Part shown: positions 32,200 through 41,142 of the stretch, piece after piece
Layout of the letters: each line of letters starts with the position of its first letter
Position numbering within the stretch: the stretch's first letter is position 1
DNA from: an uncultured Phycisphaeraceae bacterium
Lineage (GTDB): Bacteria; Planctomycetota; Phycisphaerae; Phycisphaerales; UBA1924
Length of the DNA stretch: 64,000 nucleotides
Assembly: GCA_964410465.1 (NCBI GenBank)
Contig: CAYPGJ010000005.1
Location: 17,275-81,274 of the forward strand
Direction: 5' to 3'
Position numbers and translations under genes: made by a program
The notes under the pieces: model-generated
What the model was told of the DNA's origin: nothing
What the model saw: only the letters and a program-made list of their open reading frames with translations
Database searches by the model: none

Positions 32200-34179
32200 A
32201 TGATGACAACGCGACCAACAGAGCGATATGGCGTACCGACGAGGGGCGCGGGGAACCCGGGATTCGCGCAAGTGACGACGCCTGGGTCGTTTGCGAACAA
32301 GCGCGCGCACGGGTGGGACGCGCGGGGGGCGCTGACGTACTCGTCGCCGGACACGCCGGGGATGCCTGCGGCGTCCACGAAGACCGCGTGGGACTTCCTC
32401 CCAAGTGGGTGGAGTGTCGTCGAGCTTGGCGAAAATGCGCACAGAAATGGATCGACATGGACAGGGCGCGTGTTTTCCCAGAACCCCCATGTGTCCGCGT
32501 CCGGTGCGCCGATTTGCGGTGATATCTCGACTTCCGAGGGCGCGTGCCGTAGTGACGAGAAGAAGGGGGAAGGTTGCGCATGTTGCCTTGGCGAGGATCG
32601 GGCGTTCGTCGAGTTTGTGACGGCCGACAACCGGCGCCTGCGGGTCATCTATCCGGCTGACTTCCGGCCGATGACGCAGCTGGAGCATGCGCGTCTGGGG
32701 ATCGTGACGCCGCAGATGAAGCACGTGGCGACGCGCGAGGCGCATCTCACGGCGGAGATGGTGCGCGATGAGATCGCGGCGGGGCGGATGATCCTGCCGG
32801 CGAACATTCACCACCTTGCGCACCGGCTGGAGCCCATGGTGATCGGGCGGGCGTCGAAGACGAAGGTGAATGCGAACATGGGCGCATCGCCTGTTTCGTC
32901 GGGGACGGATGAGGAGGTGGAGAAGCTGAAGTGGGCCGAGCGTTGGGGCGCGGACACGGTGATGGATTTGTCGACGGGTGGGAACCTGGATGAGTGCCGA
33001 GATGCGATTTTGCGGAACTCGACGGTTCCGATCGGAACGGTGCCGATCTACTCGATGATCATCGGGAAGAAGATCGAGGACCTGACCCCGGAACTGATCC
33101 TTGCCACCCTTGAACATCAGGCGCGGCAGGGCGTGGATTACTTCACGATTCACGCGGGCGTGCTGCGCGAGCACCTGCCGTATGTGAAGAACCGGCTGAT
33201 CGGGATCGTGTCGCGCGGCGGGTCGCTGCTCGCGAAGTGGTGCCTTGTGCATGACGATCAGAACCCGATGTACACGCACTTCGAGGCGATCTGCGACGTG
33301 ATGCGCGAGCATGACGTGTCGTTCTCGCTGGGTGACGGGCTGCGGCCGGGCGGTCTCGCGGATGCGTCGGATGATGCGCAGCTGGCTGAGCTGGAGACGC
33401 TGGGGGAGTTGACGGAGCGGGCGTGGCGGAAGGGTTGCCAGGTGATGGTGGAGGGGCCGGGGCACGTGCCGCTGGATCAGATCGAGTTCAACATGAAGCT
33501 GCAGCGGACGCTGTGCCACGGGGCGCCGTTCTACGTGCTGGGGCCGCTGGTGACGGACGTGTTTCCGGGGTATGACCACATCACGTCGTGCATCGGGGCG
33601 ACGAACGCGGCGTATCACGGGGCGTCGATGCTGTGCTACGTGACGCCGAAGGAGCACCTCGGCTTGCCGAAGAAGGACGACGTGAAGCAGGGGTGCATCG
33701 CGTACAAGATCGCGGCGCATGCGGGGGATGTTGCGCTGGGGATTCCGGGGAGTCGCGAGTGGGATGATGATCTGACGAAGGCGCGGGCCGCGCTCAATTG
33801 GGAGAAGCACTTCGAGTTAGCGTTCGACACGGACACGGCGCGTGCGTTCCACGACGAGGACCTGGACGTGGACACGGACTTCTGCGCGATGTGCGGGCAT
33901 GACTGGTGCTCGGTGCGGATCTCGAAGGAGATTCAGGAGTTTGCGTCGGGCAAGGCCGAGGGGTTTGAGCGGGGCAAGCCGGTGAAGTCTGCGGCGTTGA
34001 CGATCGAGCAGAAGGAGATTCTGGAGAAGCGCGGGGTTTTGAGTCCGGAGGAGATTCATCGGTTGGCGGCGAAGACGAGGAAGGCCGTGGGTGCGGAGGA
34101 GGGGAAGAAGGCGGGGTGTCATTCGGATTATGTGGATGACGACGCCGCCCGATCTCAGATCTCGCGGGCGCTCACATAA
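32200..34179 (+). CDS. thiC: Phosphomethylpyrimidine synthase ThiC (start uncertain; conserved core begins at ATG 32671)
   Basis: The conserved ThiC core runs from [20 protein letters not shown] onward, with the radical-SAM-type C-terminal CxxCxxxxC (CAMCGHDWC). The first 157 codons of the ORF are unlike known ThiC N-termini but retain moderately high third-position G/C. Confidence 0.9.
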
Positions 34180-34189
34180 CCACCGCCGC

Positions 34190-35143
34190 TCATCGACGAA
34201 TTGAATCTGCTTGGTTAGCAAACGAGATATGGCCGTTGATCCGCGCCAACTCTACGTCTCCAGGTTTCATCTTCGTGCGCTGATATTTCATGAGTCGTAT
34301 GCGATTGCGGTACGCCTTTGGCAATCGAACCTGATCGCCATGCACAAGCAACCCGAGCACTCGGATCATTTCCGGACGGCTTTCCACAACGGTTTTTTGC
34401 GTAGCAACTTTCCATCCCCCCGCCACTAGAACGCGACTCACTCTTTCCAAAACACCATCGGGGCCACCTCTCCAATTAGTAACAACGATATCGTCCGCAT
34501 ATCGCGTAAGCCGCCACCCATGCTCGTTGGCCACACTCGCCAAACGCTTGTCAGTATCCGCAAAGACCATGTTCGAAAGTACCGGACTAAGTGGCGATCC
34601 CTGCGGCAACACGCCATTCAGCGTAGCTAGATCTGCGATCAGGTTAGATGCCGCACTTGAGTACCCAACGCGCACGACGCTGTCGTATACTTGCGCACGA
34701 CTAATGCTGCCGAAGAAATCCTTGATATCCACGGATACGCACCACTTTGACCTCTTGTGCTCCTCCGCAGCGCTCCAAATACTCCGACCGGGTACAAAGG
34801 CATGGACATGACTTGGCGCCACCAAACCGCGCGCCCAATACTCCGCAAGCCATTTTTGAATCACCTTTAGCGACACACGCGGAGCCTCGATCTTACGCTT
34901 CTTCGTCCCAGATAGCATATAGAACGTCCTGTAATAATGACGAGCGTTTTTTGCCATCGCAATAACAAATCGCGGAGAGAATCCACTCAAGAGCGACAAC
35001 GTATGCACTGAGGTTACTGGCGGCAGTCCATGACTTGCCAACGTCTCCATAGCATCGACCTCGACATGCCATGGGGTATCCTGAAGTGCCCGCTGCACTT
35101 CATCCATTGTGTCAAATGAAAAAAGGAGCGGCGGGGCCTTCAT
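34190..35143 (-). CDS. Retron-type reverse transcriptase
   Basis: 317 aa with RT motifs SVDIKDFFGSI, LPQGSPLSPVLSN, TRYADDIVV and a downstream RVLGLLV (VTG-like) segment. No maturase/endonuclease or other extra domain. A structured ncRNA lies immediately upstream. The alternative start is Met13 (ATG at 35107). Confidence 0.85.
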   Translation of the reverse strand: MKAPPLLFSFDTMDEVQRALQDTPWHVEVDAMETLASHGLPPVTSVHTLSLLSGFSPRFVIAMAKNARHYYRTFYMLSGTKKRKIEAPRVSLKVIQKWLAEYWARGLVAPSHVHAFVPGRSIWSAAEEHKRSKWCVSVDIKDFFGSISRAQVYDSVVRVGYSSAASNLIADLATLNGVLPQGSPLSPVLSNMVFADTDKRLASVANEHGWRLTRYADDIVVTNWRGGPDGVLERVSRVLVAGGWKVATQKTVVESRPEMIRVLGLLVHGDQVRLPKAYRNRIRLMKYQRTKMKPGDVELARINGHISFANQADSIRR

Positions 35144-35309
35144 TTCAAGTACTCACGCGAGCCAAGGTTGCCCTTGCGTTGTGCGTGCGACGCACGAAGG
35201 CGGAGGATTCGAAGAAGCGTCCGCCTTCGTGCGTCGCAACTTCTGTCCGTGACCTTCGCTGAAGGAGGATGATTCACCCTCCGTGCGAAATGATCCCGCC
35301 GCTCCCTTT
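35121..35309 (-). ncRNA. Putative retron msr-msd non-coding RNA
   Basis: A 15-nt inverted repeat brackets the element: 35295-35309 (RNA AAAGGGAGCGGCGGG) pairs with 35121-35135 (RNA CCCGCCGCUCCUUUU) with one G-U. Inside it are small hairpins (GGAGG..CCUCC, CCUUC..GAAGG) and a perfect 18-bp stem (35187-35204 / 35220-35237) with a 15-nt loop. It lies directly 5' of the RT. Confidence 0.7.
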
Positions 35310-35315
35310 CCAAAG

Positions 35316-36071
35316 TTACCATTTGCGTCTCCCAAGAGCAAGAGCCCGGGCTACGTCTGTGTTTTGTCGGTCAGGACGAGCTGGCAGCGACTGCAATCCG
35401 ATCATGGTCAGCGAAGCGGCCCGGTCCTCGTCGACGACAACCAAGCCCTTGTGCCGGAATCGATCGAACGCGGATCGAACAAGGCGATCATCCGCGTAAT
35501 AGCCCGCGCTCTTCAACCCATCAACCACATGCAACACGCGTGCTGGCTGCATTGCCTTTATTCGCTGCATAATGTGCAAGTCCGTGGGCCATTCGAGCCC
35601 ACGCGCCCGAATATACGCTCGCGCAAGCCGCAACTCCGATTTCCTGAGAGCGCGCGATATCGTAGCGGACAATTGACGAAGCACGCCTGTTAGGTCGCCG
35701 GGTGGCACATATTCTCCTACATCTACGTTGCATACGACTGCCTGTCGCGAGACGAAGACAACCGCCACTTCACACTTAGGAATACCCAATTCAAATGCCA
35801 CCATGGATGACAACAACTCTTCAAGACGAGTCATGGCATCTGACGCGTCATATATCAATATTACCGCTCTATGTACTTGAAGCTCGATTCTTTTAACTGC
35901 TTTCTGCAACTTAGTTCGAAGCGCGACGGCGTCATATGGCACTGTGCCGCCTACACTACCAGAGACTCGCACTATTGTTGTCGACTCATCCTCGTTTTCG
36001 ATGCGTGTCGACTGCAACAGGGACTCATCGATTTTCTTAATCGCGTTCAGTATTGTAGCTTCAAGTTCCAT
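35316..36071 (-). CDS. Hypothetical protein, retron-associated (possible C-terminal winged-helix)
   Basis: 251 aa with lower-G+C codon usage. It overlaps the upstream ORF by 11 nt and stops 7 nt before the ncRNA 5' repeat. No family recognised. The SGSVGG motif is only weakly NTase-like. Confidence 0.6.
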   Translation of the reverse strand: MELEATILNAIKKIDESLLQSTRIENEDESTTIVRVSGSVGGTVPYDAVALRTKLQKAVKRIELQVHRAVILIYDASDAMTRLEELLSSMVAFELGIPKCEVAVVFVSRQAVVCNVDVGEYVPPGDLTGVLRQLSATISRALRKSELRLARAYIRARGLEWPTDLHIMQRIKAMQPARVLHVVDGLKSAGYYADDRLVRSAFDRFRHKGLVVVDEDRAASLTMIGLQSLPARPDRQNTDVARALALGRRKW

Positions 36072-36633
36072 AAGTAGTCCACGCCTCTTTTAGGGCGACA
36101 ATGTGCTCATCGCCTTTTGTGCACCAATTCAATGCGTCCTTTGTGGAAATGATCGCGTCATTCGTGGCAGTATTTGACAACACAAAGTCTATGCCATTCC
36201 ACTCCATACGCATGTCTCTCGTATAATCGGCAGCATTTCGAATACTCTTCGCTTCACGAAGCAACTCGGCCAGTCGTTCGCCGGCCCTTGTCACCTTAAG
36301 TTTTTGAGAAGCTGCGGCAAGCTGGTCGACGCTACGGCTTCGCTCGTGTCGACTGATTGCGTCGATAATAGCGCTACATACCATCCGCTGCACTGTTCGC
36401 GGCATGCCCGAATGTGACGGGTCAGGAGTAGACGAACCACAGACTTCGAGCACCATACTGCGCGTTGCCAACAGAAGTGCGTAGTACGATCGATTAACCA
36501 CGCTCTTCGCAAATAGCTCTGCTTCATCGACCGCAAACTGGCGTCGATTGCATGCTTCTGTCAAAAGAAACTGAGCTACAACTAGCATTACAAAACTACC
36601 TTTGGCTAACTGGAGCATCGATTCTCGCCACAA
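36061..36633 (-). CDS. HEPN-like (UPF0332-type) domain protein, retron-associated
   Basis: 190 aa. NRSYYALLLATRSMVL....SHSG and a C-terminal IRNAADY resemble the sR.YYA..ha...H.g and R..aDY signatures of UPF0332/HEPN proteins. Assignment is from memory of the family, not a search. Confidence 0.5.
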   Translation of the reverse strand: MWRESMLQLAKGSFVMLVVAQFLLTEACNRRQFAVDEAELFAKSVVNRSYYALLLATRSMVLEVCGSSTPDPSHSGMPRTVQRMVCSAIIDAISRHERSRSVDQLAAASQKLKVTRAGERLAELLREAKSIRNAADYTRDMRMEWNGIDFVLSNTATNDAIISTKDALNWCTKGDEHIVALKEAWTTYGT

Positions 36634-36711
36634 GTAAGGCGAGACACCACTCTAGTGTCGGGCCATCCACTCAGCAATGTCGCTGTGCCGCGTCCGATCA
36701 GCACGATGCCA

Positions 36712-37290
36712 TAGCCCTCTCCTTTATCCTCTCCCGTTGCCCCCCGGGGGGCCAACGGGAGAGGTGGCCGGGGTCGCGTCTCGTTTGTCAGGTGGAGGGT
36801 GCGCGGGACGGGCTCACACGATGGGGGCAAGAGGCGCGGGCGGTGATGCAAAAAGGCCGATTTGATGAGATCGCCGGGGAGATGGTGGCGTGGGACTCTG
36901 CGAGGCGTGGTAGGTAAAGGAGCGATGCACCCCCGGATGGTTGCCCTCTCCCTCCCCTCTCCCATTCGTCAGAGCTCGAACGGGAGAGGTGGGAGTACCA
37001 CGCTCCCTCACGGTCGCGTCTCGCCCGTCACGCGAAGGGCGCGCAGGACGCGCACACACGATGGGGACGGGGTGCGCGGCCGATGATGCAGAAAGGCCGA
37101 TTCGATGAGATCGCCGGGGAGATGGTGGCGTGGGACTCTGCGAGGCGATGTAGATGAGGGAGCGATGCAGTAGCCCTCTCCTTTATCCTCTCCCGTTGCC
37201 CCCCGGGGGGCCAACGGGAGAGGTGGCCGGGGTCGCGTCTCGTTTGTCAGGCGTGGGGTGCGCGGGACGGGCTCACACGATGGGGGGTTA
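36712..37290. repeat. Tandem repeat, ~2.5 copies of a ~220-240-bp unit containing a palindromic element
   Basis: The ~60-nt block aaaggccgatt(t/c)gatgagatcgccggggagatggtggcgtgggactctgcgaggcg occurs at 36851-36906 and 37091-37146. The block tagccctctcctttatcctctcccgttgccccccggggggccaacgggagaggtggccggggtcgcgtctcgtttgtcagg occurs at 36712 and 37171, with a diverged middle copy. Hairpins CCTCTCCCGTTG..CAACGGGAGAGG lie at 36728-36764, 36956-36989 and 37187-37223. Confidence 0.85.
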
Positions 37291-37832
37291 CTCGTGGCCC
37301 CCAGCTGCGCCGTAGGCCACGGCACACTCAAACCTCAACTGCGCGCTGGACAAGCGGTGTGCGCGATGTAGAGTGTGCGCGGATGATGCTGAAGTCTGCC
37401 ATTGCCTGAACGGCCTTGCTCCGCCGGTCCTGAAGAAGGATGGAGTGAGCGCGACGCGACTGTCGTCGGTCTTCTCAAAGAGGGGGCTGCGCGGCGGGAG
37501 GTGTGTCGTGCGCGGGAGCAGGGCCGAGGGCCCCCACTGCAACTGAATCGACGCGGGTTTTGAGCGGTTTTTCGTGCGCGCTCTCACCCCCCCACCACCA
37601 CCGCCGCCGGGACAGGCGTGATGGGCTTCCTGCCGAACGGCGCGGGGCCCTGAATGCACGTCGTTCGCGTTGCTCTTCGGGCGTGCGCGATGTGCGGCGC
37701 TGGTGTGCGGCGGGTTGAGGTGAGCGCGGGGAGTAGAGGCCGCGCGGACGGCAAGGCGATCGCGGGCGCTCTTTGAGCGGGCGATCTGTCGGCGCGGTCG
37801 GTCTGTCAACTTTGACTGGGAACGAAGATCAC

Positions 37833-38225
37833 ATGGGACATTCGGAACGGTCGCGCGGGAAGCGCGGGTTTGCGGAGGGGGATTGCAGGGCGGGGGAGAC
37901 GTTCGTGTGCATGAAGTGCCGGCACACGGTGGCGATGGCGTCGTGGGGGACGAAGCATCGGAATCATTGCCCGGCGTGCTTGTGGTCGCGGCATCTGGAT
38001 GAGGAGGCGGGGGACAGGAGGTGCGCGTGCCGAGCGTTGATGGCGCCGGTGGCGATTGAGGTGAGGCGGGATGGGGAGTGGGCCGTGGTGCATCGGTGCA
38101 CGGGGTGTCAGGCGCTGAAGGCGAATCGGATCGCGGGGGATGATCATGAGATGGCGCTGTTGGCGCTGGCGCTGCGGCCGATTGCGAATCCGGCGTTTCC
38201 GCTGGGGCCGAGGGGGGTGGATTGA
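37833..38225 (+). CDS. RNHCP domain protein
   Basis: Contains CMKCRH...KHRNHCPACLWSRHLD...CTGC, the zinc-ribbon-like RNHCP signature. ATG at 37833. Confidence 0.75.
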   Translation: MGHSERSRGKRGFAEGDCRAGETFVCMKCRHTVAMASWGTKHRNHCPACLWSRHLDEEAGDRRCACRALMAPVAIEVRRDGEWAVVHRCTGCQALKANRIAGDDHEMALLALALRPIANPAFPLGPRGVD

Positions 38226-38320
38226 GGAGGGAACCGGGAGAGGGAGGGGGGCATCGAAGGGAGGTAATGCAAAGGCATAGAGAAAGAGATGAGCAACAAG
38301 GCATGGAGCCCTCACCCTGC

Positions 38321-38350
38321 CCTCTCCCGTTGCAAAGCCAACGGGAGAGG
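38321..38350. repeat. Solitary copy of the CCTCTCCCGTTG/CAACGGGAGAGG palindromic element
   Basis: Sequence cctctcccgttg-caaagc-caacgggagagg, upstream of msrA. The arms are the same as the hairpins in the 36712-37290 array. Confidence 0.7.
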
Positions 38351-38391
38351 CGGCCGAGGCGCCATACGCTTATGCGAGCACGTGAAGGAGA

Positions 38392-39039
38392 TTGCGCATG
38401 CGGGTGATGATGGTGTTGGCGGGGTTGGTTGTGGCGGGTTGTGTGGCGATGTTGGCGCGTGGGGAGGATGTGGTGAAGGAGGAGCCGGCGGTGAAGGAGT
38501 GCGTGTTGGCGGGCGGGTGCTATTGGTGTGTGGAGGCGGTGTTTGAGGAGCTCAAGGGGGTGAAGGAGGCCGTGTCGGGGTTTGCGGGGAGCGGTGAGGG
38601 GAAGGCGCGCGACGCGGAGGAGGCGCACGCGAAGGGGTATGCGGAGGCGGTGCGGATTACGTATGACCCGTCGGTGATCGATTACGTGGCGTTGCTGGAG
38701 GTTTTCTTTGCGACGCACGACCCGACGAGTTTGAATCGGCAGGGTGCGGACGTGGGTGTGGAGTATCGGAGCGCGGTGTTTTGGAAGGACGCGGCGGAGA
38801 AGGAGGCCGCGGAGGGGATGATCCGTGCGTTGGAGGAGGGCGGGGCGTACGGTGGGAAGCGCGTGGTGACGACGATTGAGGAGTTGAAGGACTTTGTGGA
38901 GGCGCGTGCGGGGCACCAGAACTACGTGTGCAACAACCGGGGTCAGCCGTACGTGGAGCAGGTGGCGATGGAGAAGGTGAAGAAGGTGCGGGAGAAGTTC
39001 GAGGAGCGGTTGAAGGCGGAGTCGCCGCTGAAGCGGTGA
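38392..39039 (+). CDS. msrA: Peptide-methionine (S)-S-oxide reductase MsrA (with signal peptide)
   Basis: Has the GGCYWCVEAVF active-site motif and an N-terminal hydrophobic signal. Confidence 0.9.
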   Translation: MRMRVMMVLAGLVVAGCVAMLARGEDVVKEEPAVKECVLAGGCYWCVEAVFEELKGVKEAVSGFAGSGEGKARDAEEAHAKGYAEAVRITYDPSVIDYVALLEVFFATHDPTSLNRQGADVGVEYRSAVFWKDAAEKEAAEGMIRALEEGGAYGGKRVVTTIEELKDFVEARAGHQNYVCNNRGQPYVEQVAMEKVKKVREKFEERLKAESPLKR

Positions 39040-39041
39040 GA

Positions 39042-39644
39042 TCAGCGGAGGAAGTAGGCGAGGAAGGCGGTTTCTTCGGCTTCGGTGACGACGGGGGTCC
39101 AGGTGGTGGAGGACTCGTTGTAGGAGTCGGAGCGGACGCGCCCTTGTCGGTCTCGACGGGGGTAGTAGGAGCCGGTGGTCCAGGTGGTGACGGGGACGTA
39201 GTCGAGTCGGTCGGTCGTCCCGAGGGAGTAGGAGGACCAGACGACGAGGGTGGCGTTGTGTTTGGCGGCGAGGGATTGGAGTTGTGCGGTGTCGGGGGAG
39301 GTGAAGTCGGTGGTGCGGAACTCGGAGACGGCGAGGACGCGGGTGACGCCTGATTGGGGGGTGACCTGGAGCGCGGTGAGTAGTTGCTTGTCGGCGGCGA
39401 GTTTGCGATCTGGCGGCCACTCGTTCACGGGGGCGTCGGAGGCGGCGACCAGGCGTCGGAGATCGTCGAGCACGGGGGAGAGTCGCTCCCAGGGGACGTT
39501 GCGTACGAGGACGTCTCGCGCGGAAATGCGCGGGGCGTGGGGCGCGGGTTCGAGGAGGACGAATCGTCGCTCCCAGTGGGAGGGCGCGCAGGCGGCGAGG
39601 AACGTTGCGAGGGTGGAGAGCGCGATGATGGTGCGCGCGATCAT
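39042..39644 (-). CDS. Lipoprotein of unknown function
   Basis: Only the last 200 aa of listed ORF 39042..40727 are credible. MIARTIIALSTLATFLAAC is a signal with lipobox. ATG confirmed at 39644-39642. Confidence 0.6.
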   Translation of the reverse strand: MIARTIIALSTLATFLAACAPSHWERRFVLLEPAPHAPRISARDVLVRNVPWERLSPVLDDLRRLVAASDAPVNEWPPDRKLAADKQLLTALQVTPQSGVTRVLAVSEFRTTDFTSPDTAQLQSLAAKHNATLVVWSSYSLGTTDRLDYVPVTTWTTGSYYPRRDRQGRVRSDSYNESSTTWTPVVTEAEETAFLAYFLR

Positions 39645-39734
39645 GGGAGGGATGGTAGTGTCGGCGCGGAGGATGGGCGTCGGCGCGGTATGCTGGGCGC
39701 GTTGGCGGCGAGCGGTGTGTATGGAGGTGAACGG

Positions 39735-40649
39735 ATGAAACTCGCACGCAGGCTGGGGTTGTTCGCGGGGCTCGGGCTCTTCGGCGTGGTGATCGTGCTG
39801 ATCGTGGTGGTGGTGTCGATCAACGGGATCGCGCGCACGGCGATCGAGAAGGGCGGGACGTACGCGCTGGGCGTGCCGACGCACCTCGACGGGGCGAATG
39901 TGGGGATCGTGTCGGGGACGTTCGGGATGAGCGGGCTGCGGGTGGAGAATCCGGAGGGGTACTCGTCGGAGAGCTTTCTGACGCTGGGGAACGGCGGGGT
40001 TGCGGTGTCGCTGGGGACGTTGCGTCGGGACGTGGTGGAGCTGCCGTCGTTGCGGCTGGAGCGCATCACGGCGTCGCTGGAGCGCAAGGGGGGGACGTCG
40101 AATTACCAGACGATTCTGGATCACGTGAAGGGCGTGACGGGCGGCGGGGGTGAGACGAAGCCGACGACGAAGCCGAGCGAGGGGGGGAAGAAGTTTGTCG
40201 TTCGCGAGCTGGTGATCGAGGACGTGCGGGTGCGTCTGGACGTGTTCGGCGCGCCGGACGGCGGCCTCAAGAAGTTGACGACGGTGGACATTCCGATCGA
40301 CGAGATTCGGTTGAAGAATGTCGGCCAGACGGGGACGGGCGTCGGGGGGACGGGCGTGACGATGGGTGAGCTGGCGTCGATCGTGGTGCGTGCGGTGCTT
40401 GGGGCGGCGGTGGAGAAGGGGGGCGGGTTGATCCCGGGCGACATTCTGGGTGAGCTTCGGGGGTCGCTTGCGTCGCTGGGCGACTTGAGCGGGTTGGGGA
40501 TCGAGGTGGTGGCGAATGCGAAGGGTGTGGTGGAGGACGTGGCGGGCGGCGTGGTGAAGGAGGGGGAAAAGGTCGTGGAGGAGGGGAAGAAGAAGATCGA
40601 GGAGCTTGGCGAGGGTTTGAAGGGGCTGGTTCCCAAGAAGCCCAGCTAA
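39735..40649 (+). CDS. Membrane-anchored protein (AsmA-N-like)
   Basis: Begins MKLARRLGLFAGLGLFGVVIVLIVVVV, a TM anchor, followed by a beta-rich region. ATG at 39735. The upstream part of the listed ORF overlaps the lipoprotein gene. Confidence 0.6.
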   Translation: MKLARRLGLFAGLGLFGVVIVLIVVVVSINGIARTAIEKGGTYALGVPTHLDGANVGIVSGTFGMSGLRVENPEGYSSESFLTLGNGGVAVSLGTLRRDVVELPSLRLERITASLERKGGTSNYQTILDHVKGVTGGGGETKPTTKPSEGGKKFVVRELVIEDVRVRLDVFGAPDGGLKKLTTVDIPIDEIRLKNVGQTGTGVGGTGVTMGELASIVVRAVLGAAVEKGGGLIPGDILGELRGSLASLGDLSGLGIEVVANAKGVVEDVAGGVVKEGEKVVEEGKKKIEELGEGLKGLVPKKPS

Positions 40650-40698
40650 GCGTTTTTTGTCGGGATGTGATGTGATTCGGTTTGCACGTTGAGCGAGT

Positions 40699-41142
40699 TT
40701 GTTCCGGAGCGCTTCCGAGGCCCCCATGGTTTCTTCCGGTTCTGACGCCCATCATGGCTCCGACGCTGTCACGCAGGGGATCCGCGTGCGCGTGCGGCCG
40801 CGCTTTGCGCCGGATCACTCCGATCCGAGCGCGCGTCGGTGGGTGTTCACGTATCACGTGCGGATCACGAATGAGAGCGAGAGTGCGGCGACGCTGCTGG
40901 CGCGACACTGGCGGATCGTGGACGCGGAGGGGCGCACGCGCGAGGTATCGGGTGAGGGTGTGATCGGGCAGCAGCCGAGGCTGGAGCCGGGGCAATCGCA
41001 CTCGTACTCGTCGTTCTGCCCGCTGGAGACGGCGTGGGGGTCGATGGAAGGCTCGTACTTGATGCAGCGAGACGACGGGGTTCGGTTCCGCGCGGCTGTT
41101 GCGCGTTTTTTGCTGGTTTCGCCGCCGGAATCGCGATCGTAA
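40699..41142 (+). CDS. apaG: ApaG (DUF525) protein
   Basis: Contains YHVRITNESE....LLARHWRIVDAEGRTREVSGEGVIGQQPRLEPG, which closely parallels E. coli ApaG. The start may be the Met at 40726. Confidence 0.85.
   Translation: MFRSASEAPMVSSGSDAHHGSDAVTQGIRVRVRPRFAPDHSDPSARRWVFTYHVRITNESESAATLLARHWRIVDAEGRTREVSGEGVIGQQPRLEPGQSHSYSSFCPLETAWGSMEGSYLMQRDDGVRFRAAVARFLLVSPPESRS

Follow-up and report, generated by a model that had tools for sequence, protein, structure and literature searches.

The minus strand of the DNA analyzed here, a 64,000-nucleotide (nt) stretch from an uncultured Phycisphaeraceae bacterium (GenBank assembly GCA_964410465.1, contig CAYPGJ010000005.1, positions 17,275 to 81,274; hereafter the window), carries at positions 35311-35119 an RNA of 193 nt that we identify with high confidence as the msr-msd non-coding RNA (ncRNA) of a type IX retron. 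Type IX retrons, whose gene set and order were defined by Mestre et al. 2020 (PMC7736814), are four-part anti-phage systems composed of a HEPN protein, a winged-helix (WH) protein, the ncRNA and a reverse transcriptase (RT). The window has the features of the type: an RT of this clade with its YADD motif, a HEPN protein with the conserved His and Arg, a WH/helix-turn-helix (HTH) protein, the operon order and the ncRNA itself. A first-pass annotation, made from the letters alone, had read the sequence directly ahead of a retron RT as a retron ncRNA, with an msr hairpin for RT binding and a long msd hairpin as template. The core of that proposal is upheld by the match of the RT to the PADLOC model RT_IX, by covariation and by a covariance-model match, and its two hairpins, stem-loop 1 (SL1) and an 18-bp stem, are supported by pairing in homologues.

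The RNA, its homologues and its operon

The RNA is bounded by an outer helix. The inverted repeat read by the first-pass annotation, AAAGGGAGCGGCGGG (35309-35295) against CCCGCCGCTCCTTTT (35135-35121) with 14 Watson-Crick pairs and one G-U, is present as described and was recovered by a separate repeat search (I12, 15 nt, 93%); with G-U pairs allowed it grows to 17 bp. Its 5' arm, the earlier a2, is GGAAAGGGAGCGGCGGG (35311-35295), and its 3' arm, the earlier a1, is CCCGCCGCTCCTTTTTT (35135-35119), which falls in RT codons 3-9, coding for A-P-P-L-L-F. When the same 380 nt were shuffled 30 times, the top-scoring inverted repeat averaged 8.8, with 10.5 as the highest value. When folded, as the first-pass annotation had proposed, the minus-strand RNA 35315-35115 (201 nt) lies far below its shuffles, with a minimum free energy (MFE) of -104.5 kcal/mol against -67.8 +/- 4.5 in 200 shuffles (z = -8.2).

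For the comparative analysis, 30 RT homologues were aligned and the alignment was used to fetch loci from genomes and metagenomes; a search of genome contigs with the RT sequence alone returned no relatives, and its repetition with the 30-sequence alignment found the loci. When the ncRNA regions of 22 loci other than the window were aligned with plain MAFFT (A4) and scored against a structure taken from one of the 22, 82% of cells were paired, compared with 65% in shuffles (0 of 500 reaching 82%) and 36-47% when the 3' partners are slid by 1-3 columns. The covariance model built from these 22 type IX loci, with the window excluded (R1), has a single match in the 64-kb window, at 35147-35298 on the minus strand (75.1 bits, E = 6e-21). 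Among 89 fetched loci it matched 28, all of them type-IX-like and each at the 5' edge of the RT, and it matched none of about 60 loci with other retron-type RTs. The covariation across homologous loci that the first-pass annotation had proposed to look for was found, with compensatory changes in every helix.

The covariation and covariance-model results already refute the reading of the element as an unrelated intergenic palindrome (a terminator, an attenuator or a sequence resembling repetitive extragenic palindromes) that lies beside the RT by chance, a reading to which we attach almost no probability. GC-rich palindromic repeats do lie 1.4 kb away (36704-37290), and a search of Rfam 15 over 33000-37500 at E <= 10 gave only chance-level matches and no retron family, the best overlapping match being sbcD RNA at 16 bits compared with a gathering score of 40. 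The element, however, has no T-tract terminator, occurs once in the window, is positioned identically with respect to the RT in 28 loci of unrelated bacteria and shows its compensatory changes throughout.

The genes on the minus strand follow the order HEPN (36588-36061), WH (36071-35316), ncRNA (35311-35119) and RT (35143-34190), which is kept in 16 of 18 related loci. The RT, of 317 amino acids, matches Pfam RVT_1 (2.5e-19) and, with residues 1-315 on model positions 1-315 of 317, RT_IX (E = 2.3e-105), the next best PADLOC model being RT_II-A (2e-59); its translation contains TRYADDIVV, and Y215, A216, D217 and D218 are invariant in the alignment of the 30 homologues. The WH/HTH protein (251 amino acids) matches HTH_IX over its full length (residues 1-250, E = 8.7e-24). 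Its gene overlaps the 3' end of the HEPN gene by 11 nt, has its stop codon 4 nt ahead of the ncRNA 5' arm and is found in equal position and size (235-275 amino acids) across 18 related loci. The gene for the HEPN-like ribonuclease effector, whose longest open reading frame (ORF) begins at TTG 36633 and whose probable start is ATG 36588, matches HEPN_IX (E = 6.7e-22, residues 16-186 aligned to model positions 1-157 of 161). The window protein, aligned to 15 syntenic homologues, retains NRxYY and the H and R of H..P and R...DY, and its own YY (in NRSYY), H (in PSHSGMP) and R (in IRNAADY) fall in these invariant columns; judged from the alignment, they match residues Y41, Y42, H64 and R122 described for Retron-Kva2 (bioRxiv 10.64898/2026.07.14.738597, PMC13405049).

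The RT is 38-46% identical to the type IX family members found. Its closest relative (P0002, 46% identity) is encoded on two contigs (L082 and L083): the Logan contig has HEPN and WH ORFs upstream, and the gene calls of the NCBI contig, which belongs to a metagenome-assembled genome, include neither HEPN nor WH and show only a HicB-like gene further upstream. In the deposited annotation of the window locus (L081), the RT begins at Met32 (35050) and has 286 instead of 317 amino acids, no gene is called at the HEPN position (36061-36633) and there is no ncRNA.

Helices, priming site and predicted msDNA

SL1 (GGAGGGUG-AAU-CAUCCUCC, 35282-35264) is the msr stem-loop, with 100% of cells paired in 22 homologues and four of seven pairs changed on both sides. 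On sequence comparison it corresponds to the 17-nt stem-loop G18-C34 that the RT thumb recognizes in Retron-Kva2 (bioRxiv 10.64898/2026.07.14.738597, PMC13405049). The first-pass annotation had seen this hairpin but drew it differently; the better structure is an 8-bp stem of GGAGGGUG and CAUCCUCC with the 3-nt loop AAU. The second small hairpin that it drew, CCUUC-AGC-GAAGG (35265-35253), does not survive: it shares two nt with the first, so that both cannot form as written, and it is not conserved, all five pairs being present in the window only and 0-3 of five in 23 homologues. The conserved alternative, as the homologous sequences indicate, is a stem, P1b, formed by TTCGC (35289-35285) and GCGAA (35259-35255), which encloses SL1 (35289-35255) and is paired in 94% of cells in 22 loci; RNAalifold on the MAFFT alignment gives three of its pairs, one with six compensatory changes. 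P1b competes with an inner extension of the outer helix seen in the MFE structure, in which GAAAUGA (35146-35140), containing the RT start codon, is pairable with UCAUUUC (35293-35287).

A 10-nt linker follows SL1 in the window, and then the template; Kva2 likewise has a 10-nt linker after SL1, a 76-nt msdDNA and a DNA linker dT64-dT69 with dG68 (bioRxiv 10.64898/2026.07.14.738597, PMC13405049). Positional homology to Kva2 gives a predicted msd template of 76 nt (35253-35178, minus strand), and the predicted multicopy single-stranded DNA (msDNA), equal to the plus strand 35178-35253, is GTTGTGCGTGCGACGCACGAAGGCGGAGGATTCGAAGAAGCGTCCGCCTTCGTGCGTCGCAACTTCTGTCCGTGAC. The template includes the perfect 18-bp stem that had been claimed, GCGACGCACGAAGGCGGA (35237-35220) against TCCGCCTTCGTGCGTCGC (35204-35187), recovered by repeat search (I2) and folding with its 15-nt loop (35219-35205); all 18 pairs show compensatory changes in homologues and 86% of cells are paired. 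In the predicted fold of the msDNA the hairpin spans nt 9-61, and the DNA linker TTCTGT, which ACAGAA (35246-35241) would template by the same positional homology, spans nt 64-69 with G68. In Kva2, G45-C120 is copied into a 76-nt DNA from which ExoVII then trims 5 nt (bioRxiv 10.64898/2026.07.14.738597), and the msDNAs of Retron-Yin1 and Retron-Sen3, also of type IX and made up of the same four parts, measure 70-71 nt after trimming (bioRxiv 10.64898/2026.07.14.737667); the corresponding product of the window would be 76 nt, or 71 after a 5-nt trim. The predicted msd length is 71-79 nt in most of the 24 loci in which the 3' hairpin described below (SL3) was found.

The msd loop contains a motif, CUCCUUCGAAUC (DNA GATTCGAAGGAG, with the palindromic core TTCGAA), that is conserved in most type IX loci (window 35205-35219; L002, L003, L007-L011, L084-L100). 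In Yin1 the tip of the msDNA loop is contacted by the HTH domain of the neighboring unit (bioRxiv 10.64898/2026.07.14.737667), and the family loop motif kept by the window (CUUCGAAUC, DNA GATTCGAAG) probably matches this tip. RNAalifold also pairs AGAAG of ACAGAAG (35240-35244) with CUUCG of the msd loop (35211-35215; columns 72-76 and 101-105 of alignment A2). Both motifs are conserved in sequence, hence the pairing shows no covariation, and they may form a pseudoknot or be just two protein-binding motifs.

The 3' hairpin, SL3 (35177-35162, minus strand), consists of an opposing G35177, the stem CAAGG/CCUUG, the loop GCAA and the predicted branching G35162, the full signature in the window being C35178-G35177-CAAGG-GCAA-CCUUG-G35162. 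It is 94% paired in the homologues, with covarying stem variants AAAG/CUUU, GAAG/CUUC and CAAGG/CCUUG; the column of the branching G (the G of CUUUG-CU) is invariant in 22 loci and that of the opposing G nearly so. In Kva2 a small 3' hairpin ("stem loop 3") carries the branching and opposing guanosines (G139 and G121) at its ends, "unlike typical retron systems", and sequencing of the msDNA maps the 5' end of the DNA to the nt just 5' of the SL3 opposing G (bioRxiv 10.64898/2026.07.14.738597). The window has the sequence signature of this type IX geometry, with the first template nt, C35178, just 5' of the opposing G. By conservation and Kva2 homology, the branching G of the window is most likely G35162 at the base of SL3, not a G beside the 5' repeat arm.

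The first-pass annotation had instead assumed the canonical layout, in which the outer repeats position the branching G, and in this respect it fails: the outer helix offers no G-G, and a G-G flanks SL3 as in Kva2. Canonical priming, with the same ncRNA carrying its branching G beside the 5' arm of the outer repeat and reverse transcription beginning immediately 5' of the 3' arm, is what classical retrons do as a rule (Mestre 2020, PMC7736814), and the outer helix is strongly conserved. Classical retrons such as Ec86 (Retron-Eco1, type II-A) share with the window the terminal inverted repeat, an msr hairpin, a long msd hairpin and an RT immediately downstream; in them the terminal repeat closes on the branching and opposing G, which face each other with the branching G directly 3' of a2, whereas the G-G of the window flanks an internal 3' hairpin, and the effectors differ. 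In the window the outer helix has no opposed G-G, either at its inner end, where A35294 faces C35136, or at the end of the extended helix, where G35286 faces U35147; the conserved G-G flanks SL3 instead, next to which the msDNA 5' end maps in Kva2. Moreover, canonical priming predicts a DNA of about 118 nt compared with the 70-76 nt measured in Kva2, Yin1 and Sen3. We therefore consider canonical priming improbable and retain G35162.

The agreement with Kva2, for which only published coordinates were compared, comprises the order HEPN-WH-ncRNA-RT, an RT with an extra N-terminal domain, the R/F contact residues of the RT (R72/F74 in the window) and YADD, an msr stem-loop of 17-19 nt followed by a 10-nt linker and a 76-nt msd, TTCTGT as the DNA linker (nt 64-69, with G68), and a small 3' stem-loop with a guanosine on each side. 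At 193 nt the window ncRNA exceeds that of Kva2, published as 173 nt; the outer helix of the window is also longer and lies further out, and the window host, unlike that of Kva2 (Klebsiella variicola), is an organism of 63-69% GC present in metagenome assemblies only. A tblastn search of plasmids for Kva2, Sen3 or Yin1 gave only three distant matches, none of them enterobacterial.

Several points weigh against the assignment of the element and of its priming site. In addition to the Rfam result, the closest non-identical RT is only 46% identical, the R that 15 homologues have in the "RS" motif is K in the window HEPN, and the MFE fold of the window forms the inner extension of the outer helix in preference to the conserved P1b. 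The branching G is assigned after what one preprint inferred by sequencing msDNA 5' ends, a second preprint on Kva2 depicts priming at the inverted repeat in the usual way, and the mapping onto Kva2, Yin1 and Sen3 was made by published coordinates only. The R-to-K change, the deposited gene models with their shortened RT and missing HEPN, and the failure to find a usable promoter would also fit a decayed retron, in which the RNA structure is kept and msDNA production and defense are lost; the scan for promoters and terminators gave shuffle-level results and is uninformative for this organism. Such decay nevertheless seems quite unlikely: the three ORFs are intact and full length with respect to the family models, YADD, the HEPN H, R and YY and the RT N-terminus are retained, the msd stem is perfect at 18 bp and the outer helix spans 17 bp.

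If the system works as its homologues Kva2, Yin1 and Sen3 do, from which we transfer the mechanism and infer the msDNA ends and the defense activity, the operon would be transcribed as a single RNA whose intergenic part folds so that the outer helix joins both ends, with RT codons 3-9 as 3' arm. The RT would bind SL1, prime from the 2'-OH of G35162 at the base of SL3 and copy from C35178 back to about G35253, yielding 76 nt of single-stranded DNA that contains a 19-bp hairpin and, 3' of it, the TTCTGT linker. RT, msDNA and WH protein would together keep HEPN inactive, its dimer being sequestered in large assemblies, until a phage nuclease cuts the msDNA; the released HEPN would then cleave host tRNA or rRNA and arrest growth.

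The RT start and the outer helix

The N-terminus of the RT, M-x-x-P-P-L-L-V-S-F, is conserved in the 30 homologues, and many homologues have in-frame stops just upstream of Met1. Because MxxPPLL is conserved, the sequence evidence places the RT start at ATG 35143, so that the coding sequence of the RT overlaps the ncRNA. The first-pass annotation had noted that the 3' arm covers RT codons 3-8, which the coordinates bear out, and had offered two ways out, an overlap or an RT start at the second Met (35107). The overlap stands, given the conserved N-terminus and the alignment of RT_IX from residue 1 of both protein and model; a start at Met13 (35107), like the deposited start at Met32 (35050), is rejected on the N-terminal conservation and the homologues' in-frame stops upstream of Met1. 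In Kva2 the domain made up of RT residues 1-45 binds the WH protein, and deletion of 39 N-terminal residues abolishes defense (bioRxiv 10.64898/2026.07.14.738597, PMC13405049). An overlap of ncRNA and RT is not unprecedented: the ncRNA of Retron-Eco11 (type III-A3, PMC12746101) also overlaps the 5' end of its RT and abuts or overlaps the 3' end of the effector gene, and its long two-part terminal helix likewise holds the RT start codon. Eco11 differs from the window in its RT clade, its PRTase effector and the canonical placement of its branching G.

On plain MAFFT alignments RNAalifold recovered SL1 and P1b and missed the msd stem and the outer helix, a failure explained by the two subfamilies (RT N-termini MxxPPLL and MRLPH), whose arms differ in position and in distance from the core. 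For the outer helix an alignment-free test was used instead. Over the whole interval from -320 to +60, the best inverted repeat of a locus has its 3' arm at RT nt +1 to +24 in 25 of 27 loci. These helices are 9-17 bp long, their arm sequences vary by locus, and the third positions of Pro codons in the 3' arm change jointly with the 5' arm; in the MRLPH subfamily the 3' arm starts at the U of AUG. Anchored on the start codon only, RT codons 1-9 reach a mean pairing score of 12.2 with their own upstream region compared with 7.2 with the upstream regions of other loci, and codons 10-18 reach 6.6. The pairing of the outer helix is locus-specific.

These observations raise the possibility, which we put forward tentatively and consider less likely than not, that the outer helix has two uses and is conserved as such throughout type IX retrons, its 3' arm being at once the RT start-codon region with codons 1-8 and the code for the MxxPPLL peptide. 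The overlap and its covariation are seen here; our own, inferred reading is that the RNA may be a circular permutation of the classical retron RNA, in which SL3 would play the part of the classical a1/a2 stem and the outer helix would tie the 3' tail of the branching G to the msr hairpin. A regulatory coupling of RNA and protein would belong to the same conjecture.

Genomic surroundings and significance

The retron cassette (34.2-36.6 kb) has a GC content of 0.49-0.57 compared with 0.63-0.69 in its flanks, and by composition it looks like a small horizontally acquired islet. It lies between thiC, which converges on the RT, and a repeat region, and the flanking housekeeping genes further include those for a DinB-family protein, MsrA and an FG-GAP protein. 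There is no integrase nearby, and the 28-42 kb interval has no tRNA that could serve as an integration site. The stretch from the retron to msrA holds, at 36704-37290, about 2.5 diverged tandem copies of a unit of about 230 bp, each opening with the GC-rich palindrome CCTCTCCCGTTGCCCCCC/GGGGGCCAACGGGAGAGG (36728-36764 and 37187-37223, with a variant near 36958-36992); the palindrome core AACGGGAGAGGTGG recurs at 38340-38353, just upstream of msrA. Tandem Repeats Finder called nothing in 36500-37800. From 37600 to 41000 the GC skew is unusually strong and positive, up to +0.51, and the real genes of this region, MsrA (38392-39039), a DUF748-like protein and the FG-GAP protein, are on the plus strand. 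An ORF of 819 amino acids on the minus strand (37288-39747) was rejected as a neighboring gene, being an Arg/Pro/His-rich antisense artefact of high GC.

As the ncRNA of a retron type that was defined in 2020 and structurally dissected in three 2026 preprints, the element is a well-supported, divergent member of a known family, and our findings leave the knowledge of the type IX system itself unchanged. They add a type IX retron from a high-GC organism represented by metagenome assemblies only; no other protein found exceeds 46% identity to its RT. What is mildly new is limited to the placement of the 3' arm within RT codons 1-8 throughout the family and to the errors in the public record, in which the RT is short by 31 residues, HEPN is missed and the ncRNA is absent, and which are corrected here. 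The predicted 76-nt msDNA gives a ready design for an msDNA-producing cassette, and the comparative data on the 3' arm (within RT coding sequence in 25 of 27 loci), the SL3 guanosines and the msd loop motif may be of use for work on type IX. If the outer helix does serve both RNA and protein, ncRNA folding and RT translation may exclude each other and so set the ratio of RT to ncRNA. Taken together with the G-G-flanked SL3, such a helix would turn the type IX ncRNA into a circularly permuted form of the classical retron RNA, with the branching G and the msr hairpin held together by the outer helix in place of a covalent link.

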